Of a stretch of DNA of 64,000 nucleotides, positions 6,631 through 54,829 are shown one piece after another (position 1 is the first letter of the stretch; each line of letters starts with the position of its first letter). The stretch comes from Haliotis cracherodii. Taxonomy: Eukaryota. The notes below the pieces were generated by a model, which was given only the letters and a program-made list of their open reading frames with translations, was not told the origin of the DNA and searched no databases. Where the stretch lies: NCBI RefSeq assembly GCF_022045235.1, contig NW_027266286.1, positions 1,191,856 to 1,255,855 on the forward strand, written 5' to 3'. The position numbers and the translations under genes were made by a program.

Positions 6631-6810
6631 CCTATGTTTGCTTTGGGGAACAGGTCCCAGATACAGTTGTGGTTCACCCCTGCCATGATGCATCTATTCT
6701 TGTCTGTTTTTAAAACTTGGTCCACTGAAACTTGCCTCAGTCATAAAGATGTAACAAATAATGTTTTGGTTGAAAACTTTAGCCAGTTCTAGAGCTGTTC
6801 AATCTGAGCA

Positions 6811-6982: not shown

Positions 6983-7037
6983 TTAGCAGTGTTACTGTCA
7001 TGTTGAAGTGATCTTCTAATTTATGTTACATACTTAC

Positions 7038-7208: not shown

Positions 7209-7319
7209 CTGAAACACATGTACACAGATATAAGAAGAGTGGTGATGTGGCTACATGGACCTCATTGATTTACATTCTTGACTTTAGCCTTCAACCATCC
7301 TGACCCACGTCCAAAATCC

Positions 7320-14806: not shown

Positions 14807-15439
14807 GCTGCTCGGTGATAGTAGGTCCTTGCGACAAGCTGGTCCACCGACAACACACAGACAAGAAACAAGGAAGTGTAACTAGCCAGCTCTGCCTGCC
14901 AGGATATGACGAGAGGGAGGGTCGGATGTAGATCAGTCATACACAGCGACAAGAACCAAAACCAGTCCTCACTCAGACTGTCTGTTTAGAAGTATTTCCA
15001 TATTTCAAAGAAACATGTTTTTATTTTTAAGTGGTGAAAAGTTTCAATTGTTTATTGTTGTTGTAATGGTTGTCAATATTTGCCATCAGTTTTTTTCAAC
15101 AAATTAGGAAAGTTTTTAGTTGTTTGTTTTATCAGAAAATAATATTAATGTATATATGATGAACATGCATGGAGTGTGTGCTCAACTGTGTAATACTTCC
15201 TATATCACCACATTCACCTGCTTGTTATCCCAGGTGGGACTGTGGTTAGTTATTACACACGTATTCACAATCAGAGCTAACTGAGTTCAGCTGAAGGAGG
15301 CTGTTAAGGGAAGAATTGTGTGAAGAGTGTATTCACAGCAGATATAGGTCATAGTATTATTCTGTATGAATATTTGTCTCTGTCAATACTCAGGTAGTTC
15401 CTGGGTCCCCTGTCCACAATATTGGGGCCGACACGTGAT

Positions 15440-15830
15440 CTGTAGATGTCTATACAACTCACACTGTTGTCAGTTACCTGCAATCAGGACTCACTGTGCG
15501 TTGTGGGCAGCCACCTGCAATCAGGACTCACTGTGTGTTGTGGGCAGCCACCTGCAATCAGGACTCACTGTGCGTTGTGGGCAGCCACCTGCAATCAGGA
15601 CTCACTGTGTGTTGTGGGCAGCCACCTGCAATCAGGACTCACTGTGTGTTGTGGGCAGCCACCTGCAATCAGGACTCACTGTGCATTGTCGGCAGCCACC
15701 TGCAATCAGGACTCACTGTGTGTTGTGGGCAGCCACCTGCAATCACGACTCACTGTGCGTTGTGGGCAGCCACCTGCAATCAGGACTCACTGTGTGTTGT
15801 CGGCAGCCATGCATGACTTGATCGCTCTTC
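15440..15830. repeat. 37-bp minisatellite caatcaggactcactgtgYgttgtgggcagccacctg
   Basis: Three overlapping frames are open (ORFs 15366..15821 etc.). Artefactual ORFs. Confidence 0.8.
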
Positions 15831-15849
15831 AGATTTAAGTCGTACATGC

Positions 15850-17780: not shown

Positions 17781-18999
17781 TGGAGGAAACACTATGTCAT
17801 TCATACACCCAGTCACTCTTTGATACAATCACTCATGCTGTCATTCGTTCATTCACCCGTTCGTTCATGCATTCATTAATTCATTCACATAACCCTTCAC
17901 TCATACTTCAACTTGATCACTCTTTCCCCAAGTCATTGAATCACTGTATTTTGTCACTGACTGAATTGTTTTGAGACAGTGACCGTGGCGTTGTAGTGGA
18001 GGAGATGGTGGTATCAGTGCAGCATGTATGTCTTCCTGATCAGTCGACATCGAGACCGTGGCACCTAACACACAAGGAACAAACAGGGTTGCGGCCTCCT
18101 AACAACCACTGCAGATTGTTGCAAGGCATATTCCGTGTTGACCCAGGAAGTCAATGTCCTTGTGCACAATGGGTTATCATAATAACTACAAACATCCTGA
18201 ACACAATGTGAGTGTTTAGATTGAGGACATGATAAACAACTTTGACAGCTTTCATAGAAAAGGATGATGTTTCTATTGTTGAGTGACGTGATGACATGTT
18301 GTTGCTGCAATGACATCCTCATTAATCCAGGTTGTTATATCTCCACTCAATCTTGATAAAAAAAACCTGGACATTCTCTACCAATACCCAGTTGCCTCTT
18401 ACAACACTGTTTTTTCAATCATTTCTGTGAATTTGAGAAAATTGTGACTATAATGTATTCCTGTGCCACTTCATTGTTGATGTTCATGCTATCAACCACT
18501 GGTTTGTTTACTTCAACCCGGCAAATATTGAACATCAGGGAGTCCTTTCAACTCATGACAAGCTGACAGTTTCCTCCTCACGACAACTTGATAAACAGAC
18601 TTGTTATCTGGGTGGGATGTTCCTGTGATGGCCTTGGTGGCGATTGTGGTAGAAGACGGGCGTATTTCTGTGTTCACCAGGACGTGTATTTATTTGCTCA
18701 CTGAAAATCCTTATGCTGATCATGACCTAACTCCTACAATCATGTTAATTATTTAATCAATTTATTAAAATGTGCATCTGGTGTGCACAATGACTGAACG
18801 CAGAAAAAGAATATGCTGTGTCCTGAGGGACCACAATAATACTCATTGTACCCACAGCGCATGAAGAACAGTTGTTGGTGTCTGTTATTTCATCCCTCAA
18901 TCAATCAATTATCTAAACATACAGCACACTACACCATTTCATTACTTTACAGGACATCCAAATTGCCAACAAGGACCCTTAAAATGAGGGTAGGTGGGG

Positions 19000-19153: not shown

Positions 19154-19214
19154 CCCTACAAATGAATTATTGGATGTACCCTGAACCCCAATTTCTGTAA
19201 GTCTAGGAAAACCC

Positions 19215-20400
19215 CAGCAACAGGCATCCAGATGACGACAATGTCACCTGACACACAAGCTCCTGCATCAGTCATCCAGATGACGACAATGTCACCTGAC
19301 ACACAAGCTCCTGCATCAGTCATCCAGATGAGGACAATGTCACCTGACACACAAGCTCCTGCATCAGTCATCCAGATGACGACAATGTCACCTGACACAC
19401 AAGCTCCTGCAACAGGCATCCAGATGACGACAATGTCACCTGACACACAAGCTCCTGCATCAGTCATCCAGATGAGGACAATGTCACCTGACACACAAGC
19501 TCCTGCAACAGGCATTCAGATGACAATGTCACCTGACACACAAGCTCCTGCATCAGTCATCCAGATGACGACAATGTCACCTGACACACAAGCTCCTGCA
19601 TCAGTCATCCAGATGACGACAATGTCACCTGACACACAAGCTCCTGCAACAGGCATTCAGATGACGACAATGTCACCTGACACACAAGCTCCTGCATCAG
19701 TCATCCAGATGACGACAATGTCACCTGACACACAAGCTCCTGCAACAGGCATCCAGATGACGACAATGTTACCTGACACACAAGCTCCTGCATCAGTCAT
19801 CCAGATGACGACAATGTCACCTGACACACAAACTCCTGCAACAGTCATCCAGATGACGACAATGTCACCTGACACACAAGCTCCTGCATCAGTCATCCAG
19901 ATGAGGACAATGTCACCTGACACACAAGCTCCTGCATCAGTCATCCAGATGACGACAATGTCACCTGACACACAAGCTCCTGCAACAGGCATCCAGATGA
20001 GGACAATGTCACCTGACACACAAGCTCCTGCAACAGGCATCCAGATGACGACAATGTCACCTGACACACAAACTCCTGCATCAGTCATCCAGACGACAAT
20101 GTTACCTGACACACAAGCTCCTGCAACAGTCATCCAGATGACGACAATGTCACCTGACACACAAGCTCCTGCATCAGTCATCCAGATGACGACAATGTTA
20201 CCTGACACACAAGCTCCTTCAACAGGCATCCAGATGACGACAATGTCACCTGACACACAAGCTCCTGCATCAGTCATCCAGATGACGACAATGTCACCTG
20301 ACACACAAGCTCCTGCATCAGTCATCCAGATGACGACAATGTCACCTGACACACAAGCTCCTGCAACAGGCATCCAGATGACTCACACTCACTCACTCAC
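19215..20400. repeat. 48-bp minisatellite atgacgacaatgtcacctgacacacaagctcctgcatcagtcatccag (about 24 units), ending in (CACT)n at 20385-20410
   Basis: A SINE-A copy (19000-19153) lies at the 5' boundary and (cactcact)n at the 3' boundary. The 403-aa ORF 19232..20443 has a 16-aa period. Confidence 0.85.
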
Positions 20401-20739
20401 TCACTCACTGAGTCGTGTCACCAGGAGGAGCCTTCATCAGTGACAACACATGGTCCAGGAAAGAGAATGTAGCAAGTGCACATTTCTTCCTCTTTGCTGC
20501 GGAAGCTGGCTGTCAAGTGGTTATGAAATAAATGGATCTATTTAAGATACCTTTGTGTTTAGTATTCATTTTTATATTTTGATCAAAGGTAATTGAAATC
20601 CAACCAGCAAGTATCTCTCTCAGATGTTTGGCTAGAATAGCTATGAAGAGATGAAATGGTAAATTCTACTTGTTATAATTGGTCAAATAATTTTGGTCTG
20701 TAAGCTAGCCCCATAATGGAGGTGCCAAGCTAGACACAG

Positions 20740-25959: not shown

Positions 25960-28900
25960 TCACCTCAACCTCCCCTCAACCCCATCAAAGCCCTCAACTT
26001 CCCACAACCCCCCTCAACTTCCCACAAACCCCACAACTTCCCACAACTCTCCTCAATCCCCCTCAACCTCCCCTCAACCCCCTTTAACTCCCCTCAATCC
26101 CCCCTCAAGTCCCCTCAACTCCCCATAATTCCCCTCAACTCCTCATAACTCAACTCAACCTCCCCCCCACCCCCGTCAAACCAACACCCCTCAACCCCAC
26201 AACTCCCTTAGTCCCTGAATCCCTGAATCCCCTTCTCAACCAGCTCACACTTCTTACACACAACCTAAAATCCCTCAGACCCTTCAACACCACTCAAACA
26301 CCCTCACACAACCTCAAACAGCTCAAACTCACACCCCACAAGCCCCTACCCCTCACCCATCTCATCTCTCAGTGATGGACCAAGCCACCCTAGCACACCC
26401 TAGCACATCCCAACACACCCCAGCACACCCCAGCACACCCTAGCATGCCCTAGCACATTAGCACACCCTAGCACACCATAGCACACCCCAGTACACCCTA
26501 TCATGCCCTAGCACACCCTAGCACACCCCAGCACACCCTAGCATGCCCTAGCATGCCCTAGTACACCCTAGCACACCCTAGCATGCCCTAGTACACCCTA
26601 GCACACCCTAGCACACCCTAGTACACCCCAGTACACCCTAGCACACCCCAGTACACCCTAGCATGCCCTAGTACACCCTAGCACACCCTAGCACACCCTA
26701 GCACACCCCAGTACACCCTAGCATGCCCTAGTACACCCTAGCACACCCTAGCACACCCTAGCATGCCCTAGCACACCCTAGCACACCCCAGTACACCCTA
26801 GCACACCCTAGCACGCCCTAGCACACCCTAGCATGCCCTAGCACACCCTAGCACACCCCAGTACACCCTAGCATGCCCTAGTACACCCTAGCACACCCTA
26901 GTACACCCTAGCATGCCCTAGCATGCCCTAGCACACCCTAGCATGCCCTAGTACACCCTAGCACACCCTAGTACACCCTAGCATGCCCTAGCACACCCTA
27001 GCACACCCCAGTACACCCTAGCATGCCCTAGCACACTCCAGTACACCCTAGCATGCCCTAGCACACCCCAGCACACCCCAGTACACCCTAGCACACCCTA
27101 GCATGCCCTAGCACACCCCAGTACACCCTAGCATGCCCTAGTACACCCTAGCACACCCTAGCACACCCCAGTACACCCTAGCATGCCCTAGTACACCCTA
27201 GCACACCCTAGCACACCCCAGTACACCCTAGCATGCCCTAGTACACCCTAGCACACCCCAGTACACCCTAGCACACCCCAGTACACCCTAGCATGCCCTA
27301 GTACACCCTAGCACACCCTAGCACACCCTAGTACACCCTAGCACACCCTAGCACACCCTAGCATGCCCTAGTACACCCTAGCACACCCCAGTACACCCTA
27401 GCATGCCCTAGTACACCCTAGCACACCCTAGCACACCCTAGCACACCCTAGTACACCCCAGTACACCCTAGCACACCCCAGTACACCCTAGCATGCCCTA
27501 GTACACCCTAGCACACCCTAGCATGCCCTAGCACACCCTAGCACACCCAGGCACACTCCAGTACACCCTAGCATGCCCTAGTACACCCTAGCACACCCTA
27601 GCACACCCTAGCACACCCTAGTACACCCCAGTACACCCTAGCACACCCCAGTACACCCTAGCATGCCCTAGTACACCCTAGCACACCCTAGCACACCCTA
27701 GCATGCCCTAGCACACCCTAGCACACTCCAGTACACCCTAGCATGCCCTAGCACACCGTAGCACACTCCAGTACACCCTAGCACACCCTAGCACACCCTA
27801 GCATGCCCTAGCACACCCTAGCACACCCCAGTACACCCTAGCACACCCTAGCACGCCCTAGCACACCCTAGCATGCCCTAGCACACCCTAGCACACCCCA
27901 GTACACCCTAGCATGCCCTAGTACACCCTAGCACACCCTAGTACACCCTAGCATGCCCTAGCACACCCTAGCATGCCCTAGTACACCCTAGCACACCCTA
28001 GCACACCCTAGTACACCCTAGCATGCCCTAGCACACCCTAGCACACCCCAGTACACCCTAGCATGCCCTAGCACACTCCAGTACACCCTAGCATGCCCTA
28101 GCACACTCCAGTACACCCTAGCATGCCCTAGCACACCCCAGCACACCCCAGTACACCCTAGCACACCCTAGCATGCCCTAGCACACCCTAGCACACCCCA
28201 GCACACTCCAGCACACCCTAGCACACCCCAGTACACCCTAGCACACCCTAGCACGCCCTAGCACACCCTAGCACACCCCAGTACACCCTAGCATGCCCTA
28301 GCACACCCTAGCACACCCCAGTACACCCTAGCATGCCCTAGCACACCCCAGCACACCCCAGTACACCCTAGCATGCCCTAGCACACCCCAGTACACCCTA
28401 GCATGTCCTAGCACACCCTAGCACACCCCAGCACACCCCAGTACACCCTAGCACACCCCAGTACACCCTAGCATGTCCTAGCACACCCTAGCACACCCCA
28501 GCACACCCCAGTACACCCTAGCACACCCTAGCATGCCCTAGCACACCCTAGCACACCCCAGTACACCCTAGCATGCCCTAGCACACCCTAGCACACCCTA
28601 GCATGCCCTAGCACACCCCAGTACACCCCAGTACACCCTAGCACACCCTAGCATGCCCTAGCACACCCTAGCACACCCCAGTACACCCCAGTACACCCTA
28701 GCATGCCCTAGCACACCCTAGCACACCCCAGTACACCCTAGCACACCCTAGCATGTCCTAGCACACTCTAGCACACCCTAGCACGTCCCAGTACACCCTA
28801 GCACACCCTAGCATGTCCTAGCATGCCCTAGCACACCCTAGCACACCCCAGCACACTCCAGCACGCCCTAGCACACCCTAGCACACCCCAGCACACCCCA

Positions 28901-28990
28901 GCACACCCTAGCACACCCCAGCACACTCCAGCACGCCCTAGCACACCCTAGCACACCCCAGCACACTCCAGTACACCCTAGCAGACTCCA
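25960..28990. repeat. Degenerate (cccctcaaY)n tract, then a 2.6 kb array of 10-bp cctagcacac variants (cctagtacac, cctagcatgc), in the SNRNP200 D-E intron
   Basis: Visible periodicity at 26340-28990. ORFs 25718..26128 and 28868..29101 are artefacts. Confidence 0.85.
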
Positions 28991-29809
28991 GCACGCCCAT
29001 TCCCACTCCACCCACTCTCCACTCCACAACCATTTCTTTCCCTGAGAACCATGTTCAACAAGTGTAGCTCCTTCCAGGCATGTGACACCTTCGGTACACA
29101 CTCGGTATCATCGCTGCCACCAGTGTGGGCGCGGCCATTACAAAAATCTTGAAATTTGGCCTCTAACCCCAAATGTAGTAAAGTTTATACTTTTGTTAAT
29201 GTCTTTGGGAATGCCATCACAGTTAATTTTGAAAAGGTTTACGACTGATCATATTTCCCAGATGAATTTACATTTTTGTTTGATTGATCGGATTGGTTCG
29301 AGATTGCAGACAAACAGAAATTCAACCAACTTCCCCCTTAATATAACAAATGTTATATTTGGGATAACACTTTCTTTGTATAGTACAGATTCTCGTACTT
29401 GTTTAGGTTGAGTTCCACCCACACATGCCAGAGTGAGGCACCTTATCGCCAGCACACAAAGCCACCAATCTAACCCACTCAGCCACCGAGGCTTCCACAA
29501 AATGAAAGTCCAACAACTGGTAGTCTAGATCACGTACTTTGTGTACCCCTCTGAACAAATTTCTGTGCAAATTGGCACAGCTCCCATGGCCGAAAGCTAT
29601 GAATACTCATTGCATTTAGAAAGTGGTCAAATGTACATTCTTATTTTACCAGTTACATGATAGTTGTAATGAAAATAGAAATTCAAACTGGGAAACAAAG
29701 AAAATAATTAAGCTGGGGTAAGAGTATTCAGCGTCACGGCAGTCATCAATTGTTTCTAAACATAACTGTCAGTCGACTGCGAGTTCAACACCAAGCATGG
29801 TTGTAGCCA

Positions 29810-30431: not shown

Positions 30432-30583
30432 GCCATGCTGGATGTGTCAGCGGACCAGGGATGGTTGGCGACGTCACTGCGGGTGATTCAACTGATCCAG
30501 ATGGTGGTGCAAGGTCGATGGCTGGAGGACTCGACCCTCCTCACCCTCCCTAACGTCATGCCCTACCATGTGTACTGCTTCAG
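30432..30583 (+). CDS. SNRNP200: SNRNP200 exon; AMLDVSADQGWLATSLRVIQLIQMVVQGRWLEDSTLLTLPNVMPYHVYCF(+ag)
   Basis: Acceptor cacctcacag|gcc, donor CAG|gtacgt. Matches human [50 protein letters not shown]. Phase 0 continuity with the previous exon (..AIRILQ|AM..). Confidence 0.88.
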
Positions 30584-31800
30584 GTACGTAGAGTCCCATC
30601 ATGCACTGCTTCAGGTACGTACAGTCCCATCATGCACTGCTTCAGGTACGTACAGTCCCATCATGCCCTGCTTCAGGTATATACAGTCCCATCATGCACT
30701 GCTTCAGGTACGTACAGTTCCGTCATGCACTGCTTCAGGTATATACAGTCCCATCATGCACTGCTTCAGGTACGTACAGTCCCATCATGCACTGCTTCAG
30801 GTACGTACAGTCCCATCATGCCCTGCGTCAGGTACGTACAGTCCCATCATGCACTGTGTCAGGTATGTATACTCCCATCAGGCACTGTGTCAGTTATGTA
30901 CAGTCCCATCATGCCTAGCGTTAGTTATGTACACTCCCATCATGCACTGTGTCAGTTACATACAGTCCCATCATGCACTGCCTCAGTTATGTACACTCCC
31001 ATCATGCACTGCCTCAGTTATGTACACTCCCATCATGCACTGCCTCAGTTATGTACACTCCCATCATGCACTGCATCAGTTACGTACACTCCCATCATGC
31101 ACTGTGTCAGTTACGTACACTCCCATCATGCACTGCCTCAGTTATGTACACTCCCATCATGCACTGCATCAGTAACGTACACTCCCATCATGCACTGTGT
31201 CAGGTATGTACACTCCCATCATGCCCTGCCTCAGTTATGTACACTCCCATCATGCACTGTGTCAGGTATGTACACTCCTATCATGCACTGCCTCAGTTAT
31301 GTACACTCCCATCATGCACTGCGTCAGTAACGTACACTCCCATCATGCCCTGCCTCAGTTATGTACACTCCCATCATGCACTGCCTCAGTTACGTACAGT
31401 CCCATCATGCTCTGCCTCAGTTATGTACACTCCCATCATGCACTGCGTCAGGTACGTAAGCTCCCATCATGCACTGCCTCAGTTATGTACACTCCCATCA
31501 TGCACTGCCTCAGTTACGTACAGTCCCATCATGCACTGCCTCAGTTATGTACACTCCCATCATGCACTGCCTCAGTTACGTACACTCCCATCATGCACTG
31601 CCTCGGGTACGTACACTCCCATCATGCCCTGCCTCAGTTATGTACACTCCCATCATGCCCTGCCTCAGTTACGTACACTCCCATCATGCACTGCCTCGGG
31701 TACGTACACTCCCATCATGCCCTGCCTCAGTTATGTACACTCCCATCATGCCCTGCCTCAGTTACGTACACTCCCATCATGCACTGCGTCAGGTATGTAC
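30571..31800. repeat. 31-bp minisatellite (about 39 units) derived from the exon E 3' end plus donor (catgcactgcttcag|gtacgtacagtcccat). It fills essentially the whole 1.26 kb E-F intron.
   Basis: Authentic junction is ..tgtactgcttcag|gtacgtagagtcccat. Proximal units keep CAG|GTACGT; most distal units have CAG|TTATGT or CAG|TTACGT (GT lost). Confidence 0.9.
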
Positions 31801-31845
31801 ACTCCTACTGTATAAAGTGACAGACAGGACATGTTGTTTGTTCAG

Positions 31846-32341: not shown

Positions 32342-32456
32342 GTGTACCTCGTATTGAGTCGTCTGCCACAAATCCAGGTCTCTATCAAGGTCAAGGGATT
32401 CTGGGAAGGGTCAGAGGGGAAGGAGGAGGCGAGAATGGTCAATCTGTCCAACACAG
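32342..32456 (+). CDS. SNRNP200: SNRNP200 exon; VYLVLSRLPQIQVSIKVKGFWEGSEGKEEARMVNLSNT(+g)
   Basis: Acceptor tttcacttcag|gtg, donor ACAG|gtaggg. RLPQIQVSIKV matches human RYPNIELSYEV. The track ORF 32342..32653 reads through into the intronic (GAT)n. Confidence 0.82.
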
Positions 32457-32554
32457 GTAGGGCATGTTTCATTTCGGGGAACTGTTCCATATTCCTTGTT
32501 CCGGTAGCATCCACGCCTACATCCGGATGTCTGGAATTTGTTGATTGTACTACT

Positions 32555-32597
<43 letters not shown>

Positions 32598-32721
32598 TCG
32601 ATGCTGATGATGATGATGTTGATGCTGATGAGGAGGAGGATGAGGAGGAATGAACATAATGGGGATGATGTTGTGACAGTGGCAGTGACGATGTAACTTT
32701 ATGCAGAGATGTTGATAATGA

Positions 32722-33052
32722 GGTGAGGTGAGGTGAAATTGGGTTTACCGTCGTGTCCAAGATTATTGCACTTATATAGCGAGCGTGTGTGCGTGCGTGC
32801 GTGTGGACTGATGCCGATTTATGGGCTATCTCACTGAGATACCATGCAGCAGTTTAACATGAATACCGAACTCTGACACAGTATACTGACTCTGAGCCAA
32901 CCAGTCCTTGTTGTAGCCCCTTAATGCCGAGCGCCAGACAGGGTAACAACAAGTACAATCTTTTAATGTCTTTTGGTATGACATGGCCGGGGATTGAACC
33001 CCGGGTCTTCCGCTCTCCGGACGGACGCTCTACCCGGGAGGCGGTCTCCGTG
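32722..33052 (-). mobile_element. SINE family C copy in the SNRNP200 intron
   Basis: Reverse complement of the family-C consensus. Head lies at 32985-33052, (gt)n at 32783-32806, and 3' end at about 32722. Confidence 0.55.
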
Positions 33053-33316
33053 ATGATGATGGCTTGGTAATGATCACAATGTTGATGACAGTGACATACT
33101 GACAACGATGACAATGTTGATGATGCTGACCATTTTAACGAAGATGACCCTGTTTACGACAGTGATGACCATTTTGACGAAGATGACCCTGTTTACGACA
33201 GTGATGATCATATTAACGATGATGATCATGTTTACGACAGTGATGCCCAACTAACACGAAAATGTTTTAAAAACATCCCTAAAACATTTTACGAAACGTT
33301 TTCTGGGAACATTTGT

Positions 33317-33870
33317 TTATAACATTTCCAGAATGTTTTGAAAACGAACCAGAGTGTTGAAGAATCTCAGCGTGTTGCTGCCAATGTTCACAATGTACAA
33401 CACCAAGTCACTGTTATACAAGATACAAATGATTAGGACAAATAGTCCCAGACTGTACACCCCCCAGGCATGCGCTGCAGAAAACACAATACCAGTGACC
33501 GACATGGTGACCCATGCCAAGGACCGACATGGTGACCCATGCCAAGGACCGACATGGTGACCCATGCCAAGAACCGACATGGTGTCACATGCCAATGACC
33601 GACATGGTAACCCATGCCAATGACCGACATGGTAACCCATGCCAAGGACCGACATGGTGACCCATGCCAAGGACCGACATGGTGACACATGCCAAGGACC
33701 GACATGGTGACACATGCCAATGACCGACATGGTGACCCATGCCAAGGACCGACATGGTGACCCATGCCAAGGACCGACATGGTGACCCATGCCAAGGACC
33801 GACATGGTAACCCACGCCATGGTAACCCAACAAGACAGGCATAAGACGATAGGGCAGGCATACAACACAT
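33317..33870. repeat. 25-bp minisatellite gacatggtgacccatgccaaggacc (about 20 units) inside the GIY-YIG element
   Basis: Periodic 25-aa ORFs on the minus strand (33317..33868 etc.). Confidence 0.8.
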
Positions 33871-33938
33871 ACAGAAATAATTAAGTATTGTAGTGGCAGT
33901 AAAATGTACAATACATATAATTGTATAAAATAATTCAA

Positions 33939-34325
33939 TTATTTCACACCATTTAATTTTGGTTTGAAAGTATTACTAAAATAAATTTCTTTTATCTTTC
34001 TCAGTGCATCATTGTCACATTTGTAAAACGGGAATATCACAAAATGTGGTGTTTTATTCCCGGCACACTGACTGAGTGGGATACACCAACAAGAGAGGTC
34101 CCTTATTTGTTGTCGGTGGACCCTCACTCTCGCTCTTAGGGTGTTCCCTGTCTGTCCAATGTATTCGGCCTTGCATCCAGCACATTGTAGGACATAAATC
34201 AAGTTTTTCGAAGCACAATTCATATTTTCATGGACATAGAAAGTTTTTCCGTCTTTGAATGTAAAAGAACAACATTGTAAAACATGAGGGCAAGTACCAC
34301 GATTTGGTCTGTTACACTTTTGCAC
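33939..34325 (-). pseudogene. GIY-YIG nuclease domain ORF fragment (..CPHVLQCC..KTFYVHENMNCASKNLIYVLQCAGCKAEYIGQTGNTLRARVRVHRQQI..)
   Basis: Conserved spacing of the GIY..YIG..R..H motif, with an upstream Cys cluster as in Penelope-like endonuclease domains. Upstream ORF pieces (34891..35139, 35155..35403) are in different frames. Confidence 0.55.
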
Positions 34326-36619
34326 TGTTTTACATTCTTGTTTTCCATTTGAGAAAGAAGCCCTAGTAAGAATCTGTTTCAGATTTTGACTGTCATTTAC
34401 TTTTAATAAGTTTATTTTGTGATATTTTTTGTTTTAGTTCTTTACACTTATTTAAGGAATACAGTGATTCCCGAACACTTCGAAATATTTTGGGGAGTTT
34501 TGGGGATTAAAGGTTGTAACAAAAGGGAGAACACTCTCGTTAGGTTTATCTTTAGGTTTTAAAAGATCACAACGGTTTTGTGATTTAGCCTTGTTTATTG
34601 CGTCTTCCACTATTTTTCTAGGGTAGTTTCTTTCTAATAGTGATTCCCTCAGTTCATCGAGTTTGTGTTGTGCACTATTGTGCAGATTTTACGTGCTAAT
34701 GAGTAAGGGACATTGTTTATGGTTTGGGCTTCTTTGGCGACCTTGGCCTTGCTGTCTCCCCTGGTTGGAAGATCTGCCTTCAGTGATGTTGATTGTTCAG
34801 GGGGGGTCTTCATCCCCGGGACGTTGTACTTCTTCTGAATGTACAGTTCTGTGTTGGAGGACCTCTGAGAGTCAGTTTCACAGAATGTGATTAGGGTGGT
34901 TTTATTTTTGTCACGTCAGCATAAGATTTCCCCTCAGTTCTTAGATTTTTTAGGAAGTGATTTTCTTCTTTTGAGTTGACGTTTAAGGTATAGATTGTAT
35001 GCCGTTTCTTGTTTTTCTCTAATCGCTTGTTAGATATTTCTTCTTCAATCTGACATACTCTTTCCCATTCTTTCTGCAACAATTCAAGTACTTTTCCCTT
35101 TGTTGTTTTCACAAGTTCTTCAATGATTTCTGCATTCATTTCTTTGAATTTCAGTTAATGGGACTCCACACGCAGTCGTAAAAGTTCAATTACACTTTTC
35201 ATGGAATCTATGGCATGTTTTTCTCTAAGGACACGCTGTGTGTCGGGTTCCCCCTTCATAGGCTTGATTTGGAATTTAGGAGGTATGATCCGTTTTGCCC
35301 CTAAGAGCCATTTTAGATACATGTCTGCTAGATTGGAATTGTTTAAATAACCCCAGTATGCTTGTTTCCATTTCGTTAGAATGGAACTGCGTACTTGATT
35401 CATGGATACTTGTATCTCAGATGCTTTTCTTTCTGTTATTATTTTTACTGAGTCTTCAATAAGGTTTGCTTGAAGAATGGCTTCATTAGCCGAGACATAA
35501 GTGTGAAGCTAATTAAAGGTCTTCATTGATGAAATAATAATAATGTTCTGTACAGTATTCAAATATCAAGTGGTGTGCAAGTCCATGCGCGGCTACATGT
35601 ATTTTCATGGTTGTTTACACGACGGCCTTTATGCACTGTGAACTTCATTTCAATGCAACATTCAATAATGCAACTATTACTAACAATGGATTGCAACGAC
35701 AGATCAAGTTTGAAAAGAGCTTGGTATCAAACAAACTGTGACATTAACATTATGAGGTCGGCCCGCGAGAAACACCTGGTTGTATTCGCCAACTTGAGTA
35801 CAGCAGTGGCCCTCTGTATTTCTACCCAAGATGATCTGCCACAAGCTGACTTCTGGAATACATGTTACGCTCTGCATTCAACACGGGTAAAAGTCATTCG
35901 TTGCTGATGTGAATTTGATGATTGTTCAAGTACTGTACTATTTTCCGCATATGCAGATTGCAGATTGAAGTTATCACTTCGATCACTGCTTCATGTGTAG
36001 GTTGGTGTCTGGTGCAGTTGTTAGGCTTTCGGGAATGTTATCGTCTAACCCCCTCAGCCACTGAGGCTAGTCATGAAAAATAATTAAATGTGAGAGAATG
36101 TGTCTTGTACCATAGATCTATATTTATTCACTTCTCAACGGTCTCTCTCACGCCCCCGCAAAATATGCGCAACAATGTAATATCCTGTGACACTATCTGT
36201 GATCAGCAACAAACAAATCCTGTGAAGTTTTGTCTTACTCATGTCTGCTATATTTTCTTTAGACATTTAGTGTACAGAAAATGTTCTATTACTGCATTAC
36301 CAATCGGGTAACAATTTGAATAATTATAAAACATTTACACCTTATTCGGATGATTTTACATGTGTGGACACAATGTATTTGAAACATGATAACATTTCAT
36401 TAAATATGTTCTGGCAAAACATTTCTGCAACGTGCTGAAAACATTGTAACAACATGTTATGAAATAGTTTTGACTATGTTATAGCATCATGTTCTTCAAC
36501 AACATTTTGAAAATATTTCAATAACATTTTGAATACATTTATAACACATTAATAAAATGTTTTGACAAAAATCGTTTTGAAAAACTACAATGAAACCTTT
36601 TGAAATTGTTTTGAAAATG

Positions 36620-37260
36620 TTATGTGTTAGCTGGGTGATCATGATGATGATGACAATGATGATGTTGACGATGATGACCCTGTTTATGACAGTGATGATC
36701 ATGTTGATGATGATGATGATGATGTTGACGATGATGACCCTGTTTATGACAGTGATGATCATGTTGATGATAATGATCATGATCATGTTGACGATGATGA
36801 CCCTGTTTATGACAGTGATGATCATGTTGATGATGTTGATGATGATCATGTTGACGATAATGACCCTGTTTATGCAAGTGATGATCATGTTGATGATGAT
36901 GATGATGATCATCATGTTGACGATGATGACCCTGTTTATGACAGTGATGATCATGTTGATGATGATGATCATCATCATGTTGACGATGATGACCCTGTTT
37001 ATGACAGTGATCATGTTGATGATGATGATGATGATCATGTTGACGATGATGACCCTGTTTATGACAGTGATGATCATGTTGATGATGATGATCATCATCA
37101 TGTTGACGATGATGACCCTGTTTATGACAGTGATGATCATGTTGATGATGATGATGATGATGATGATGTTGACGATGATGACCCTGTTTATGACAGTGAT
37201 GATCATGTTGATGATGATGACAATAATGATGATGATGATGATGATGATGATGATCTGTTG
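36620..37260. repeat. About 60-bp array of (GAT)n + gttgacgatgatgaccctgtttatgacagtgatgatcatgtt, running to 3 bp before the exon H acceptor
   Basis: Right-hand terminal repeat of the GIY-YIG element. The poly-His minus-strand ORF 36620..37348 is an artefact. Confidence 0.85.
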
Positions 37261-37263
37261 CAG

Positions 37264-37355
37264 GTGGGCGGCGGCGAGATGCGGACTGGATCAAGGTCCA
37301 TGCTGACCAGGAGTATGTGCTGCAGGTCGACCTGGCCCGAGTTAACAAGACCCGG
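37264..37355 (+). CDS. SNRNP200: SNRNP200 exon; (G)GRRRDADWIKVHADQEYVLQVDLARVNKTR
   Basis: Acceptor ctgttgcag|gt lies directly after an intronic (GAT)n array with a weak pyrimidine tract. Donor CGG|gtgagt. Phase is consistent with both flanking exons. Corresponds to human GGPVVVLVQLEREEEV. Confidence 0.75.
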
Positions 37356-40685: not shown

Positions 40686-40830
40686 GGGGCGGTGGGGTAG
40701 TCTAGTATTTAAAGCATTCACTCGTCACGCCAAAGACCTGGGTTCTGTTCCCCACATGGGTACAATGTGTGAAGCCCATTTCTGGTGTCCCCCACCATGA
40801 CATTGCTAAAAGCGGCATAAAATCAGACTC
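40686..40830 (+). mobile_element. SINE family A copy immediately 5' of the 24-bp mega-array
   Basis: cggggcggtggggtagtctagtatttaaagc..ctgggttctgttcccc..ggtacaatgtgtgaagcccatttctggtgtccccc..attgctaaaagcggcataaaatc. Confidence 0.55.
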
Positions 40831-40894
40831 GCTATATGACAAACCTGGAATATATCCATTTCATGAGTTTACTGAGGCACTCAAAAGCATATTT

Positions 40895-43800
40895 AAGTAT
40901 CCCCTCTACAATTAAGTGTGCCCACAAGCCTACAATTAACTGTGCCCACAAGACTACAATTAAGTGTGCCCACAAGACTACAATTAAGTGTGCCCACAAG
41001 CCTACAATTAAGTGTGCCCACAAGCCTACAATTAAGTGTGCCCACAAGCCAACAATTAAGTGTGCCCACAAGACTACAATTAAGTGTGCCCACAAGCCAA
41101 CAATTAAGTGTGCCCACAAGCCAACAATTAAGTGTGCCCACAAGACTACAATTAAGTGTGCCCACAAGCCAACAATTAAGTGTGCCCACAAGCCAACAAT
41201 TAAGTGTGCCCACAAGCCAACAATTAAGTGTGCCCACAAGCCTACAATTAAGTGTGACCACAAGACTACAATTAAGTGTGCCCACAAGACTACAATTAAG
41301 TGTGCCCACAAGACTACAATTAAGTGTGCCCACAAGCCTACACTTAAGTGTGCCCACAAGCCTACAATTAAGTGTGCCCACAAGCCAACAATTAAGTGTG
41401 CCCACAAGCAAACAATTAAGTGTGCCCACAAGCCAACAATTAAGTGTGCCCACAAGCCAACAATTAAGTGTGCCCACAAGACTACAATTAAGTGTGCCCA
41501 CAAGCCTACAATTAAGTGTGCCCACAAGCCAACAATTAAGTGTGCCCACAAGACTACAATTAAGTGTGCCCACAAGCCAACAATTAAGTGTGCCCACAAG
41601 CCAACAATTAAGTGTGCCCACAAGCCTACAATTAAGTGTGCCCACAAGCCTACAATTAAGTGTGCCCACAAGACTACAATTAAGTGTGCCCACAAGCCTA
41701 CAATTAAGTGTGCCCACAAGCCTACAATTAAGTGTGCCCACAAGCCTACACTTAAGTGTGCCCACAAGACTACAATTAAGTGTGCCCACAAGCCAACAAT
41801 TAAGTGTGCCCACAAGCCAACAATTAAGTGTGCCCACAAGCCAACAATTAAGTGTGCCCACAAGACTACAATTAAGTGTGCCCACAAGCCAACAATTAAG
41901 TGTGCCCACAAGCCAACAATTAAGTGTGCCCACAAGACTACAATTAAGTGTGCCCACAAGCCAACAATTAAGTGTGCCCACAAGCCAACAATTAAGTGTG
42001 CCCACAAGCCAACAATTAAGTGTGCCCACAAGCCTACAATTAAGTGTGCCCACAAGCCTACAATTAAGTGTGCCCACAAGCCAACAATTAAGTGTGCCCA
42101 CAAGACTACAATTAAGTGTGCCCACAAGACTATGATTAAGTGTGCCCACAAGCCTACAATTAAGTGTGCCCACAAGCCTACAATTAAGTGTGCCCACAAG
42201 CCTACAATTAAGTGTGCCCACAAGACTACAATTAAGTGTGCCCACAAGCCTTCAATTAAGTGTGCCCACAAGCCTACAATTAAGTGTGCCCACAAGACTA
42301 CAATTAAGTGTGCCCACAAGACTACAATTAAGTGTGCCCACAAGCCTACACTTAAGTGTGCCTACAAGCCTACAATTAAGTGTGCCCACAAGCCTACAAT
42401 TAAGTGTGCCCACAAGCCTACAATTAAGTGTGCCCACAAGCCTTCAATTAAGTGTGCCCACAAGCCTACAATTAAGTGTGCCCACAAGACTACAATTAAG
42501 TGTGCCCACAAGACTACAATTAAGTGTGCCCACAAGCCTACAATTAAGTGTGCCCACAAGGCTACAATTAAGTGTGCCAACAAGACTATGATTAAGTGTG
42601 CCCACAAGACTACAATTAAGTGTGCCCTCTACAATTAAGTGTGCCCACAAGACTACAATTAAGTGTGCCCACAAGACTACAATTAAGTGTGCCCACAAGA
42701 CTACAATTAAGTGTGCCCACAAGACTACAATTAAGTGTGCCCACAAGCCTACAATTACGTGTGCCCACAAGACTACAATTAAGTGTGCCCACAAGCCAAC
42801 AATTAAGTGTGCCCACAAGCCTACAATTAAGTGTGCCCACAAGCCTACAATTAAGTGTGCCCACAAGACTACAATTAAGTGTGCCCACAAGACTACAATT
42901 AAGTGTGCCCACAAGACTATGATTAAGTGTGCCCACAAGACTATGATTAAGTGTGCCCACAAGCCTACAATTAGGTGTGCCCACAAGACTACAATTAAGT
43001 GTGCCCACAAGACTATGATTAAGTGTGCCCACAAGCCTACAATTAAGTGTGCCCACAAGACTACAATTAAGTGTGCCCACAAGACTATGATTAAGTGTGC
43101 CCACAAGACTACAATTAAGTGTGCCCACAAGCTTACAATTAAGTGTGCCCACAAGCCTACAATTAAGTGTGCCCACAAGCCAACAATTAAGTGTGCCCAC
43201 AAGCCAACAATTAAGTGTGCCAACAAGCCTACAATTAAGTGTGCCCACAAGCCAACAATTAAGTGTGCCCACAAGACTACAATTAAGTGTGCCCACAAGC
43301 CAACAATTAAGTGTGCCCACAAGCCAACAATTAAGTGTGCCCACAAGCCAACAATTAAGTGTGCCCACAAGATTATGATTAAGTGTGCCCACAAGCCAAC
43401 AATTAAGTGTGACCACAAGACTACAATTAAGTGTGCCCACAAGCCAACAATTAAGTGTGACCACAAGACTACAATTAAGTGTGCCCACAAGCCAACAATT
43501 AAGTGTGACCACAAGACTACAATTAAGTGTGCCCACAAGCCAACAATTAAGTGTGCCCACAAGCCTACAATTAAGTGTGCCCACAAGCCTACAATTAAGT
43601 GTGCCCACAAGCCTACAATTAAGTGTGCCCACAAGCCAACAATTAAGTGTGACCACAAGACTACAATTAAGTGTGCCCACAAGACTACAATTAAGTGTGC
43701 CCACAAGACTATGATTAAGTGTGCCCACAAGACTATGATTAAGTGTGCCCACAAGCCTACAATTAAGTGTGCCCACAAGACTACAATTAAGTGTGCCCAC

Positions 43801-45810
43801 AAGCCAACAATTAAGTGTGCCCACAAGACTACAATTAAGTGTGCCCACAAGCCTACAATTAAGTGTGCCCACAAGCCTACAATTAAGTGTGCCCACAAGC
43901 CTACAATTAAGTGTGCCCACAAGCCAACAATTAAGTGTGCCCACAAGACTACGATTAAGTGTGCCCACAAGCCTACAATTAAGTGTGCCCACAAGACTAC
44001 AATTAAGTGTGCCCACAAGCCAACAATTAAGTGTGACCACAAGACTACAATTAAGTGTGCCCACAAGCCAACAATTAAGTGTGACCACAAGACTACAATT
44101 AAGTGTGCCCACAAGCCAACAATTAAGTGTGCCCACAAGACTATGATTAAGTGTGCCCACAAGCCTACAATTAAGTGTGCCCACAAGACTACAATTAAGT
44201 GTGCCCACAAGCCAACAATTAAGTGTGACCACAAGACTACAATTAAGTGTGCCCACAAGCCTACAATTAAGTGTGACCACAAGACTACAATTAAGTGTGC
44301 CCACAAGCCAACAATTAAGTGTGCCCACAAGCCTACAATTAAGTGTGCCCACAAGACTACAATTAAGTGTGCCCACAAGCCTACAATTAAGTGTGCCCAC
44401 AAGACTACAATTAAGTGTGCCCACAAGACTATGATTAAGTGTGCCCACAAGACTATGATTAAGTGTGCCCACAAGCCTACAATTAAGTGTGCCCACAAGA
44501 CTACAATTAAGTGTGCCCACAAGCCAACAATTAAGTGTGCCCACAAGACTACAATTAAGTGTGCCCACAAGCCTACAATTAAGTGTGCCCACAAGACTAC
44601 AATTAAGTGTGCCCACAAGACTATGATTAAGTGTGCCCACAAGACTACAATTAAGTGTGCCCACAAGCCTACAATTAAGTGTGCCCACAAGACTACAATT
44701 AAGTGTGCCCACAAGCCAACAATTAAGTGTGCCCACAAGCCAACAATTAAGTGTGCCCACAAGACTATGATTAAGTGTGCCCACAAGCCTACAATTAAGT
44801 GTGCCCACAAGCCAACAATTAAGTGTGCCCACAAGACTATGATTAAGTGTGCCCACAAGCCAACAATTAAGTGTGCCCACAAGCCAACAATTAAGTGTGC
44901 CCACAAGACTACGATTAAGTGTGCCCACAAGCCTACAATTAAGTGTGCCCACAAGACTACAATTAAGTGTGCCCACAAGCCAACAATTAAGTGTGACCAC
45001 AAGACTACAATTAAGTGTGCCCACAAGCCAACAATTAAGTGTGACCACAAGACTACAATTAAGTGTGCCCACAAGCCAACAATTAAGTGTGCCCACAAGA
45101 CTATGATTAAGTGTGCCCACAAGCCTACAATTAAGTGTGCCCACAAGACTACAATTAAGTGTGCCCACAAGCCAACAATTAAGTGTGCCCACAAGCCAAC
45201 AATTAAATGTGCCCACAAGACTATGATTAAGTGTGCCCACAAGCCAACAATTAAGTGTGCCCACAAGACTATGATTAAGTGTGCCCACAAGCCTACAATT
45301 AAGTGTGCCCACAAGACTACAATTAAGTGTGCCCACAAGCCTACAATTAAGTGTGCCCACAAGACTACAATTAAGTGTGCCCACAAGACTACAATTAAGT
45401 GTGCCCTCTACAATTAAGTGTGCCCACAAGACTACAATTAAGTGTGCCCACAAGCCTACAATTAAGTGTGCCCACAAGACTATGATTAAGTGTGCCCACA
45501 AGCCAACAATTAAGTGTGCCCACAAGACTACAATTAAGCGTGCCCACAAGCCTACAATTAAGTGTGCCCTCTACAATTAAGTGTGCCCACAAGCCTACAA
45601 TTAAGTGTGCCCACAAGCCTACAATTAAGTGTGCCCACAAGACTATGATTAAGTGTGCCCACAAGCCAACAATTAAGTGTGCCCACAAGCCAACAATTAA
45701 GCGTGCCCACAAGCCTACAATTAAGTGTGCCCTCTACAATTAAGTGTGCCCACAAGCCTACAATTAAGCGTGCCCACAAGCCTACAATTAAGTGTGCCCA
45801 CAAGAAGAAT
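40895..45810. repeat. 24-bp minisatellite acaattaagtgtgcccacaagMMt (about 200 units, 4.9 kb) with higher-order punctuation by gtgccctctacaattaag
   Basis: Punctuation units at about 40895, 42625, 45404, 45567 and 45731. Flanked by SINE-A (5') and SINE-D (3'). All six frames are open (900+ aa artefactual ORFs on both strands). Confidence 0.9.
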
Positions 45811-45892
45811 TTTGGATCCATTGCAAACTCTATGAATGCCTTTTCCCCATAAAGATTAGCTGTTATTGACCCAGACAAGGGACTGAACTTTA

Positions 45893-47450: not shown

Positions 47451-49214
47451 TAAGGGGAAAATTTACAGGGGGAAACAAGCCATGACATTTGCTCTCTTAG
47501 ACTTTGTTCAGGTGAGCTATAATACCACCTGTTGTACATACTGAAAACAATCAAAGCATCTATGGTAAAAATTATCTATGAATAAAATGAAAGACATCAA
47601 TAATAACAGATGAAAATAACAAAAAAATGTCTGAAAAAAACCTGCATACACAAAATATTAAACTCATTTACTGCTCTACAGGACTTTCTACTCAACACCC
47701 TGAACGCCATCATTTCTATGTCATGGATAAACAGACACATTCATATACTTGTTCAGGGCCCCGTTGCAACAAAGCGACCTTAGCGCTACGACTGTCGTAA
47801 GTCTATGTTAAGGTATGGGAGTTACAATCACCTTAGCTTAGATAGCTTTGTGCAACAGGGCACAGGAGACCAACAGTACAAAGACTTTGTAATAATTTCT
47901 TTTATTTGGTCTTCAAATAAGAAGGATGCAACATTTCTGTAAGTGTTGACTCCGGACAAACTTACTACGCGCAATTTCTAATGTTTTCAGTTATAACATA
48001 AATTACTTAATCTCTGTGTATAAAAGAAATATTGGCCCAGAAAATACCACTGATTTGTAAATCATCATGTCTAGAAATCTTCATCACAAAATTCACATTT
48101 AAATTGACCAAGTTTGTTCCTGTGCATTCAACGGAAGCAATACAAAGTACATAGTTTAATCCTGAAACTTGTACAGAAGATCGGAGGGTGCACATTACAT
48201 CAATCTCAATAAAATCAGATATTGGTGCTCGCTCCTGCTAAACAAAGATCTGAGTACATTCTATTACAGGTCACGTCAGAATGACTTTTCGCAAACTTTC
48301 ACCGACCAATGAAATGACAAACACGATGTCGACATTAGCCAATCTGAGAGCAGCTTTCTCGAGCTTAGTGGCAGTATAGCTTCTTACTGGCAACGTCAAT
48401 GCGAAACTACGCTTTGAAAAATATTGATTCAAATTTGAAAACTGAACAAATGAAAATTCAGGAATGTTTTAACAGATGGCTGCAATTGAATGGTAGTAAT
48501 TCCGATGGATTTTGGAAAGTCTCTCCCGTTTCAAATGTTTATCCCATTGAAGCAAGAGCAAGACGATGCTTTTGACGCTATCAGTCGTACAGCCCTTCAT
48601 TGTTGTTGGGAATAAACTGTGTTAAGATTTTGAGGTTGCATGATGAGAAAACACATTTCAACTGATACTTTCCCGATCTAGTAAGCGATGCGCTGATTGG
48701 TTGGATGAAAGGTCGTTCTGACGTTTACCCGTAATCCTCACATCTTCATATTCTAATGAGGTTGGCATTACACTCATGTGTGCATCACAAACAAGTCAAT
48801 ATGCTGCTTTAAAGGATGGATCGTGTCAGAAAATGTAACAATTATTTTCCCATAATCAGAAACTGTTATACCTTTATTACTGACTTCTCAAACACATTGT
48901 TGTGAAACAACTCATTTTTTCACAGTACAAAAATAACTTTGTCAGTGATCCTCCTTCAGCAATCAACTGGTCCGCCAGCATGATCATTTGCCCTTGATCA
49001 AAGGGAAGCTACTGAAGTCGGTCAGCGTCACGTCACGTTGTGTTGTATCTGCTTGTCTGTTCAGTCCTTACAATGTCATAACATTACAAAATCAAGTCTG
49101 ATGTCGCACATAGGGAAAAAATAAAACAAAGTAACATTAATGATATATTTCAACCAACTACAACCGTATAAACTTCAGGAAAAGACCCCCAGCAGTGGAG
49201 GCTGACAAGCAGAA

Positions 49215-50040
49215 ACAGAAACGTTCCCCTCATGTTCCTGGATGCTGCACCAGTATATACAATGTTGCCAACACCTGTAAAAGTCGGCAGGAACGTCCCT
49301 GGATGCTGCACCAGTATATACAATGTTGCCAACACCTGTAAAAGTCGGCAGGAACGTCCCTGGATGCTGCACCAGTATATACAATGTTGCCAACACCTGT
49401 AAAAGGCGGCAGGAACGTCCCTGGATGCTGCACCAGTATATACAATGTTGCCAACACCTGTAAAAGTCGGCAGGAATGTCCCTGGATGCTGCACCAGTAT
49501 ATACAATGTTGCCAACACCTGTAAAAGTCGGCAGGAACGTCCCTGGATGCTGCACCAGTATATACAATGTTGCCAACACCTGTAAAAGGCGGCAGGAACG
49601 TCCCTGGATGCTGCACCAGTATATACAATGTTGCCAACACCTGTAAAAGGCGGCAGGAACGTCCCTGGATGCTGCACCAGTATATACAATGTTGCCAACA
49701 CCTGTAAAAGGCTGCAGGAACGTCCCTGGATGCTGCACCAGTATATACAATGTTGCCAACACCTGTAAAAGGCGGCAGGAACGTCCCTGGATGCTGCACC
49801 AGTATATACAATGTTGCCAACACCTGTAAAAGGCTGCAGGAACGTCCCTGGATGCTGCACCAGTATATACAATGTTGCCAACACCTGTAAAAGGCTGCAG
49901 GAACGTCCCTGGATGCTGCACCAGTATATACAATGTTGCCAACACCTGTAAAAGTCGGCAGGAATGTCCCTGGATGCTGCACCAGTATATACAATGTTGC
50001 CAACACCTGTAAAAGTCGGCAGGAACGTCCCTGGATGCTG
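49215..50040. repeat. 61-bp minisatellite gcaggaacgtccctggatgctgcaccagtatatacaatgttgccaacacctgtaaaagKcg (about 13 units)
   Basis: 61-aa periodic ORFs in all three minus frames. Confidence 0.85.
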
Positions 50041-50148
50041 ATTCTGTTATGTAATTAGGTTGGCTAAAAAATCCAATGTTGGCTCCCAGATTGCATTAAG
50101 GAAATACAGTGACATAGAAATCATGCTGAAAACCAACTAACACATCCA

Positions 50149-54792: not shown

Positions 54793-54829
54793 TGAGGGGT
54801 GGGGATGTACCTGAGGGGTGTACCTGGGG

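Follow-up and report, generated by a model that had tools for sequence, protein, structure and literature searches.

The stretch of DNA analysed here, which we call the window, comprises 64,000 nucleotides of Haliotis cracherodii (contig NW_027266286.1, positions 1,191,856 to 1,255,855). Its forward strand carries exons of ASCC3 (activating signal cointegrator 1 complex subunit 3). The intron between exons G and H of this gene contains, on the opposite strand, the decayed coding parts of a Penelope-like element (PLE), bracketed by two GAT-rich minisatellite blocks in direct orientation (table 1). A preliminary description of this DNA had named the gene SNRNP200. We correct the name to ASCC3: all the named homologues of the last 222 residues, encoded by the C-terminal Sec63-cassette exons, are ASCC3 (65% identity to Sinanodonta and 60% to Patella, over 99–100% of the length), and SNRNP200 is absent among them. 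ASCC3 is a Ski2-like helicase paralogous to SNRNP200, and Sec63 cassettes are found in ASCC3 as well. When exons G and H are joined, the product reads ..NLSNTG|GRRRDADWIKVHADQEYVLQV (..NTG|GRRRDADW..) and aligns without a gap to the mollusc orthologues; the acceptor ttgcag|GT is therefore genuine.

Do the two GAT-rich blocks belong to the element, or did the element interrupt them? The preliminary description had likened them to pseudo-long terminal repeats (pLTRs), that is, to part of the element. By inspection of the unit listing, the right-hand unit (60–66 bp) consists of the 39-mer of the left block plus a 24-nt internal duplication, and a manual count on the same listing makes the left units approximately 90% identical to the right-hand 39-nt core. 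A 21-nt core, CCCTGTTTAYGACAGTGATGA, occurs three times in the left block and nine times in the right, always on the plus strand, and nowhere else in the 64 kb, where 0.01 copies would be expected by chance. The left array ends in the middle of a unit (...GTTTACGACAGTGATG). The right array opens TG-ATCATGATGATG..., resuming the unit exactly at the point where the left half breaks off. We joined the flanks with 0–5 nt deleted and compared each product with the intact units. Excision of 33246–36635 together with 2 nt restores the minisatellite in phase, at 85/91 identity, as against 62–72/91 at the other offsets. Since only the 2-nt deletion restores the phase, we conclude that 33246–36635 is an insertion into one pre-existing array, accompanied by a 2-bp (TG) duplication.

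The ends of the inserted unit are consistent with this. The sequence CCCAACTAACAC begins at 33246, where the left array stops, and its inverted complement GTGTTAGCTGGG ends at 36635, where the right array starts. The two match at 11 of 12 positions, a coincidence expected at 9e-6 per random pair of positions and at approximately 1e-3 after allowing for the uncertainty of the boundaries. The inverted alignment extends to 25/30 with one gap; blastn self-comparison gave nothing longer. The preliminary description had further proposed that a composite module, a GAT core joined to an aacatttt-rich segment, recurs on both sides in direct orientation. This is correct for the GAT core, with its three and nine copies, and incorrect for the aacatttt part, which has no significant direct alignment. 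Each aacatttt segment sits on the inner side of its block: on the left the minisatellite comes first and aacatttt second, on the right the order is reversed. The segments share an enrichment of AAAACATTTT/AAAATGTTTT motifs, blastn finds no match between them in either orientation, and their sole position-specific match is the inverted 11/12 at the two minisatellite boundaries. More extended similarity between them, direct or inverted, was considered and set aside as marginal (Smith–Waterman score 28, against 19.6 ± 2.8 for shuffled sequences, maximum 32). The aacatttt segments are the mirrored inner ends of the insert and not a colinear direct module.

What was inserted? Two stretches of coding sequence lie within the unit, both on the minus strand. 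The first is the C-terminus of a PLE open reading frame 2 (ORF2). It corresponds to the last ~265 residues of a mostly bivalve family of proteins (60 matches, E 1e-64 to 1e-27, 34–49% identity) from Crassostrea, Pinctada, Mytilus, Saccostrea and others, the best match being P0001 (E = 1e-64). Full-length members of this family carry DUF8422, RVT_1, HTH_animal and GIY-YIG, and the homology of the remnant spans only residues 405–676 of the 677 of P0002. The remnant is interrupted by in-frame stops at ~34452 and ~34434 and by one frameshift at ~34660–34680, and it has lost four residues, a deletion that removes the region of the second His of the nuclease. The preliminary description had noticed a frameshifted ORF with a GIY-YIG domain. 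Its matches to proteins that join reverse transcriptase (RT) to GIY-YIG (E = 1e-64 to 1e-30, at 44–49% identity) uphold that identification; the Pfam model alone does not, for at 19.8 bits the window copy falls below the gathering cut-off of 22.6, which the homologues exceed (28.8–35 bits). The nuclease is of the two-Cys (CCHH) kind: NLIYVLQCAGCKAEYIGQTG aligns to the relatives, the strings LIYVL (GIY), CAGC (the two Cys) and YIGQTG (YIG) are present, and R, H, E and N are conserved at their positions. The linker upstream reads KCNRPNRGTC where the relatives have KCNxPxCGTC; at this homologous position the middle Cys has become Arg, and the motif has decayed.

The second stretch belongs to a different protein. 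As a possible part of ORF2 it was compared by phmmer with 65 ORF2 relatives; it resembled none of them and proved to be a separate ORF1. The ORF1 family to which it belongs has 221 matches at E ≤ 1e-3 in a 50%-identity library, 53 of them below 1e-10. These are coiled-coil proteins of 350–470 residues, with no Pfam model, in which a core WN..L..RK..YW...IIPxKFQxKEIxGEPExQ is combined with an N/Q/R-rich tail. (A third protein search, with the ORF1 alignment as the query, returned only two proteins, low-complexity words having swamped the candidate list.) Between the limits of the two homologies approximately 1.5 kb is missing. In agreement with the preliminary description, which had reported no RT motifs, tblastn of the 65 relatives against the whole window turned up no remnant of RT. 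Self-blastn of the intervals 33240–33420, 33840–34800, 35520–36300 and 36300–36640 disclosed no pLTR or other direct repeat inside the unit. The 25-bp array reported earlier between the repeats is recovered by Tandem Repeats Finder (TRF), at 12.9 copies and 94% matches.

That the two stretches derive from one element is indicated by the bivalve relatives that we compared with them (contigs L001, L002, L005 and L006; proteins P0001–P0060). In two independent contigs the ORF1 family lies directly upstream of a PLE ORF2 or overlaps it (hhalign probability 100%, E 1.8e-48). In L002 the two frames occupy 68–1474 and 1519–2709; in L005 they occupy 3700–5034 and 5001–7214, and their 34-nt overlap suggests expression of a frameshift type. 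The ORF2 of L002 has the PLE hallmarks GxKF (KGLKF) and DKG (ADKGG). With the very proteins that resemble the window in their C-termini, it shares 44–48% identity over their N-terminal halves. We conclude that the window holds one copy of a two-ORF PLE, internally deleted by about 1.5 kb. The suggestion in the preliminary description of a Penelope-like GIY-YIG retroelement is thus borne out by ORF1 as well as by ORF2. At the DNA level the window copy and the relatives are different families, and the coding parts alone align, at 65–78%.

The relatives also show where such elements insert and how they end. L001 is flanked by (TA)35 and (TA)67. Its ends, which are weakly similar in inverted orientation, each carry a CUGANGA...GAAAC motif with a palindromic ACCGGU/ACGCGU after it, and 29-bp tandem arrays between the ORF2 stop and the 3′ end parallel the 25-bp array of the window. 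L006 ends at a (TA)n tract, some 60 nt past a hammerhead-like motif, and in L005 units of 3.9 kb follow one another head to tail. Minimal hammerhead-like motifs (CUGAUGA–stem–GAAAC plus the palindrome) lie 60–95 nt from the 3′ ends of the relatives; the Rfam models at E ≤ 1 miss those of L001. The tandem units of L005 carry a core variant, AUGAAUA, that is predicted to be inactive. We conclude that this two-ORF group is common in bivalves and that insertion targeted to repeats is typical of it.

These observations agree with what is known of PLEs, which are subject to 5′ truncation, form pLTRs as partial tandems, often gain inverted repeats from an inverted truncated copy at the flank of the unit, carry hammerhead ribozymes near the 3′ end, generate target-site duplications (TSDs) of variable length and have a strong bias towards insertion into microsatellites, possibly via their CX2-5CxxC linker (PMC8557442, PMC11167929). 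In the window the insertion bias takes the form of a GAT minisatellite split in phase with a 2-bp duplication, where the relatives sit in (TA)n. The inverted repeats are short (11/12 and 25/30), and those of L001 are comparably weak.

We therefore favour, with a probability of roughly 0.6, the explanation that a decayed PLE without RT, lying antisense in the ASCC3 intron, split a GAT-rich minisatellite. The ancestral intron G–H would have held a (GAT)n-derived minisatellite of 39-bp units, ending 8 nt short of the acceptor and reading continuously ...GACAGTGATGATCATG.... A two-ORF PLE, with a coiled-coil ORF1 and an ORF2 composed of RT, CX2-5CxxC linker and GIY-YIG, would have inserted antisense into the array. 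The insertion itself, to judge from the family, probably proceeded by endonuclease nicking and target-primed reverse transcription, and would have divided the array into the left and right blocks with duplication of TG. The copy would then have died, losing the tail of ORF1 and the RT and accumulating stops, the frameshift and the loss of the zinc-finger Cys. Both the 25-bp array and the ends rich in AACATTTT are part of the insert. If the insert is one PLE unit throughout its 3.39 kb, its end ...GTGTTAGYTGGG would adjoin the 3′ untranslated region (UTR) of ORF2. The order of these events is likewise presumptive. The blocks join in phase without the insert, no direct repeat lies inside the unit and no hammerhead is found; we therefore take the direct ‘terminal repeats’ to be target DNA, as (TA)n is for the relatives, and not pLTRs.

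Several observations weigh against this explanation. No hammerhead was detected in the window intron by Rfam models at E ≤ 5, by two core patterns including CTGANGA..GAAA, or by a family-specific covariance model (R1), built from the motifs of the relatives and applied at E ≤ 10. A 13-nt identity (GTATAACAGTGA...) between the minus strand at ~33408–33420 and the hammerhead of L001 (E = 0.83) was considered as a decayed ribozyme, a reading that the covariance model does not support. The target is a GAT-type minisatellite and not (TA)n. Upstream of the ORF1 homology the unit extends for ~850–1100 nt, far more than the UTRs of the relatives. The left and right arrays carry fixed substitutions (for example C versus T in TTTAYGAC), which require independent homogenization after the split. 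Beyond 25/30 the similarity of the ends is at the level of motifs, more like the subterminal repeats of DNA transposons. Finally, no second copy of the element was found, either in the 64-kb window or in scans of metagenomes by protein and by the 25-bp array, so that the termini as we place them depend on the inverted 12-mers and the argument from phase.

Table 1. Features of the ASCC3 G–H intron, the inserted unit and its surroundings, with the hammerhead-like motifs of the bivalve relatives; positions are those of the window unless a contig is named.
Feature	Position	Strand	Description and basis
Inserted unit	33246–36635	− (sense)	3390 bp; probable internally deleted PLE, possibly with extra sequence at 5′ side; inverted termini, in-phase excision, ORF1 and ORF2 homology
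Left terminus CCCAACTAACAC	33246–33257	+	inverted partner of 36624–36635
Right terminus GTGTTAGCTGGG (plus-strand letters)	36624–36635	−	partner of 33246–33257
Left subterminal region, AAAACATTTT/AAAATGTTTT motifs	33258–33360		motif enrichment; patchy inverted matches to 36324–36623
Right subterminal region, AACATTTTGAA motif	36300–36623		degenerate 11/22-nt repeats; TRF
25-bp tandem array	33497–33819	−	12.9 copies, 94% matches; ~120 nt downstream of ORF2 stop, presumed 3′ UTR; TRF
PLE ORF2 C-terminus	33942–34726	−	post-RT HTH_animal-type region, degenerate CX4CxxC linker, GIY-YIG nuclease with CC between GIY and YIG
Internal-deletion junction	34727–34836	−	~1.5 kb lost: ORF1 tail, ORF2 N-terminus, whole RT; gap between ORF1 and ORF2 homology limits
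PLE ORF1 fragment	34837–35541	−	coiled-coil, gag-like; residues ~80–318 of ~430; 2 in-frame stops; tblastn and library search
Left minisatellite half	33047–33245	+	39-bp unit GATGACCCTGTTTACGACAGTGATGAYCATKTTGACGAW; stops mid-unit at ...GACAGTGATG; TRF
Right minisatellite half	36636–37255	+	~9.6 units of 60–66 bp; starts TG + ATCATG...; ends in (GAT)10; TRF
ASCC3 exon G	32342–32456	+	tblastn with Sinanodonta and Patella ASCC3 C-termini; donor GT at 32457
ASCC3 intron G–H	32457–37263	+	4807 nt; between third-last and penultimate coding exons
Last 8 intron bases, tgttgcag	37256–37263	+	includes acceptor AG
ASCC3 exon H	37264–37355	+	92 nt; penultimate coding exon
Degenerate (CTG)n/(GAT)n-derived repeat patch	32553–32715	+	left of SINE; TRF and sequence
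tRNA-derived SINE	32752–33043	−	86% identical copy at 12694–12926; partial copy at 1255–1408
Long minisatellite regions	40821–45849, 15348–17971, 19166–20440, ~26000–29000, 49144–50055, 54796–56189		
Hammerhead-like motifs, L001	8179–8203; 3539–3515	+; −	
Hammerhead-like motif, L006	1316–1341		
Hammerhead-like motifs, L005	3491–3517, 7425–7451		

If the ends of the unit recall a DNA transposon, might two insertions be nested here? A MITE-like element (miniature inverted-repeat transposable element) of ~450 bp, with termini CCCARCTAACAC and a AACATTTT-rich body, would have entered the array first, and the PLE, ending at ~33360–33480 and ~36300, would have inserted into it later. We consider this unlikely, although it accounts for the overlong ‘5′ UTR’ and for the absence of extended inverted homology, and short terminal inverted repeats (TIRs) with subterminal motifs that recur at each end in both orientations are the classic design of a non-autonomous DNA transposon. 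PLE relatives do, moreover, favour AT-rich simple repeats (PMC8557442). On the other hand, the window contains no other copy of such a TIR (two 12-mer matches with one mismatch are at the level of chance), the 2-bp TG duplication misfits the common TIR superfamilies, neither inner boundaries of the PLE nor a second target duplication can be seen, and the genuine relative L001 has inverted ends that are just as weak. Under nested insertion and under a single PLE unit alike, the GAT array does not belong to the PLE.

It is considerably less probable that a non-autonomous DNA transposon, with TIR CCCARCTAACAC and subterminal AACATTTT repeats, carried a captured or earlier-inserted PLE fragment and entered the minisatellite as a whole of 3.39 kb. 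The design of the ends and the clean in-phase excision footprint would suit such a carrier. But searches for ORFs and for homology find in the unit PLE ORF1 and ORF2 and no remnant of a transposase, the TG duplication is again atypical, and further copies are lacking.

The model of the preliminary description, in which the GAT/CCCTGTTTAYGACAG plus aacatttt module is the element's own pLTR-like repeat and an element of ~33050–37260 supplies the sequence before the acceptor, we regard as very improbable. In its favour, the 21-nt core flanks the insert left and right in direct orientation while the rest of the 64 kb has none, and PLEs do form pLTRs (PMC8557442). A pLTR, however, copies the 3′ region of its element, typically with the hammerhead; here the repeats form a tandem array that does not resemble the ORF-proximal 3′ region, and no hammerhead is found. 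Nor does the model explain why the blocks rejoin in phase once the insert is removed, why their aacatttt parts are mirrored, or why there is further (GAT)n-derived sequence beyond the supposed element, to the left of the short interspersed nuclear element (SINE). The relatives, for their part, are flanked by target microsatellites and not by repeats that they carry. Equally far-fetched is the view that each block is an array in its own right, drawn from a dispersed repeat family, with the inverted 12-mers and the phase match coincidental and the interior a patchwork of unrelated decayed repeats: the window is indeed extremely rich in minisatellites, and left and right units are of unequal length (39 versus 63 bp) and set apart by fixed substitutions, but a single offset gives the phase match (85/91, elsewhere at most 72/91), the 11/12 inverted match falls exactly at both boundaries (~1e-3 with boundary uncertainty), and ORF1 and ORF2 of one type of element adjoin on one strand.

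What, then, supplies the sequence in front of exon H? The acceptor reads ...gatgatgatctgttgcag|GTGGGC, with the intron ending at 37263 and the exon starting at 37264. As described previously, the right-hand repeat runs up to this acceptor and the (GAT)n tract adjoins exon H. A purine-rich microsatellite does indeed take the place of a polypyrimidine tract: between −23 and −4 the exon H acceptor has 9/20 pyrimidines, in runs no longer than 3, while the six other acceptors of the window have 10–16/20, with runs of 4–8. It is the weakest of the seven, though not dramatically so, and lies slightly below its neighbours. The upstream sequence is free of AG for 69 nt. It was earlier credited to a mobile element; because the flanking repeats are the halves of one split array, its source is instead the intronic minisatellite, that is, the target DNA. 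The acceptor would thus work with an upstream region that is poor in pyrimidines, AG-free for 69 nt and derived from a minisatellite. By itself a pyrimidine-poor acceptor is a mild curiosity. AATAAT at about −37 and the UGAU repeats are candidate branch points, and ordinary constitutive splicing is to be expected.

The corresponding introns of two related European Nucleotide Archive assemblies are shorter, 479 nt (L009, 9221–9699) and 2542 nt (L010, 6678–9219), with the position of the intron conserved. Their acceptors are conventional, with 12/20 and 15/20 pyrimidines, and neither intron contains the GAT minisatellite. We conclude that minisatellite and PLE are both additions specific to this lineage. 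The possibility that the minisatellite arose from ancestral sequence near the acceptor was discarded, its similarity to the end of the L009 intron not being significant (62 of 300 shuffles reach the score). In L010 the pol of a Ty3-like LTR retroelement lies ~5 kb upstream.

Two further properties of the right-hand array deserve mention. From 36643 to 37263 its plus strand is an unbroken frame of 207 codons (DDDDPVYDSDDHV... repeats), without a start codon and out of frame with exon H. The frame is unbroken because all the variants of unit length (39, 60, 63 and 66) are multiples of three, and it probably reflects triplet slippage rather than coding. Matches to C/D-box snoRNA and archaeal sRNA models of Rfam (sR5, sR2 and others), at 36641–37254 and also at 32564–32645, are artefacts of TGATGA/CTGA-like sequence and were rejected (15–26 bits, against gathering thresholds of 40–55).

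The SINE of intron G–H is independent of the PLE, and would have arrived separately, further upstream. It is one of three copies in the window (32752–33043, 12694–12926 and 1255–1408) that are 80–86% identical. ARAGORN called no tRNA in the region, the tRNA head of the SINE being too diverged.

The window as a whole is unusually dense in long minisatellites, which form long repetitive stop-free frames and blocks of strong GC or AT skew. A minisatellite with a 31-bp unit repeated 39.7 times, at 30574–31805, begins in the final ~10 nt of an ASCC3 exon ending at ~30584 and fills the whole intron that follows. Four of the five exact CAGGTATGT donor-like 9-mers of the window lie within it. This array may have been seeded from the junction of exon and donor, and it contains many potential cryptic donors.

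What does the insertion in intron G–H signify? As favoured here, it is an ordinary dead transposable element in an intronic minisatellite and matters little beyond annotation. It does illustrate how a split target array can appear as direct repeats on either side of a retroelement, a common trap with PLEs that target microsatellites, and it documents in molluscs a two-ORF group of PLEs of the CX2-5CxxC type, with an ORF1 that has no Pfam model. A bolder view would be that the lineage of this PLE has been retargeted from (TA)n to a GAT-derived minisatellite and, separately, that the (GAT)n tract is a functional, non-canonical region next to the acceptor. Were the first true, the linker or the endonuclease would recognize a different simple repeat; were the second true, a purine-rich, AG-free (GAT)n tract, with many UGAU sites resembling branch points and a 69-nt AG exclusion zone, would serve constitutive splicing in the gene of an essential helicase. 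We regard this view as a long shot.

How does the inserted unit compare with known systems? The non-autonomous TIR transposons and tandem-repeat MITEs of bivalves have short inverted termini, repeated subterminal motifs and an association with tandem repeats. The window unit has a 12-nt TIR, a 2-bp (TG) TSD and no other copy in the window; it differs from them in having neither a transposase nor family copies, in its atypical duplication and in an interior composed of PLE ORF1 and ORF2. Among PLEs, the Hydra and Naiad clades, which target (TA)n (PMC8557442), resemble the window copy in their strong preference for simple repeats, which consequently flank the element and obscure its TSDs. Members of the Hydra clade lack the CC of CCHH, have a single ORF and are under 3 kb, whereas the window copy has the CC and a separate ORF1. 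The endonuclease of the Naiad clade is N-terminal, that of the window copy C-terminal.

Like the canonical PLEs with a C-terminal endonuclease, of the Neptune/Nematis type (Arkhipova 2006; Craig et al. 2021, PMC8557442), the window copy has a C-terminal two-Cys GIY-YIG. Those PLEs, as well as Naiad, carry a CX2-5CxxC linker; the linker upstream of the nuclease in the window copy is of the CX4CxxC type, intact in the bivalve relatives and degenerate here. The relatives share with the canonical PLEs GxKF, DKG, RVT_1, a 3′ hammerhead, tandem as well as inverted arrangements, and simple repeats as insertion sites. The window copy departs from this type in having no RT, no pLTR and no recognizable hammerhead, and it is internally deleted rather than simply 5′-truncated. 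From the bivalve two-ORF PLEs themselves it differs in its target, a GAT-derived 39-bp minisatellite in place of (TA)n, and in the RT, which is present in their ~3.9-kb units. It resembles them in its ORF1 family and the C-terminus of its ORF2 (36–49% amino-acid identity), in the tandem array of its presumed 3′ UTR (as in L001) and in the target repeat that flanks it on both sides.

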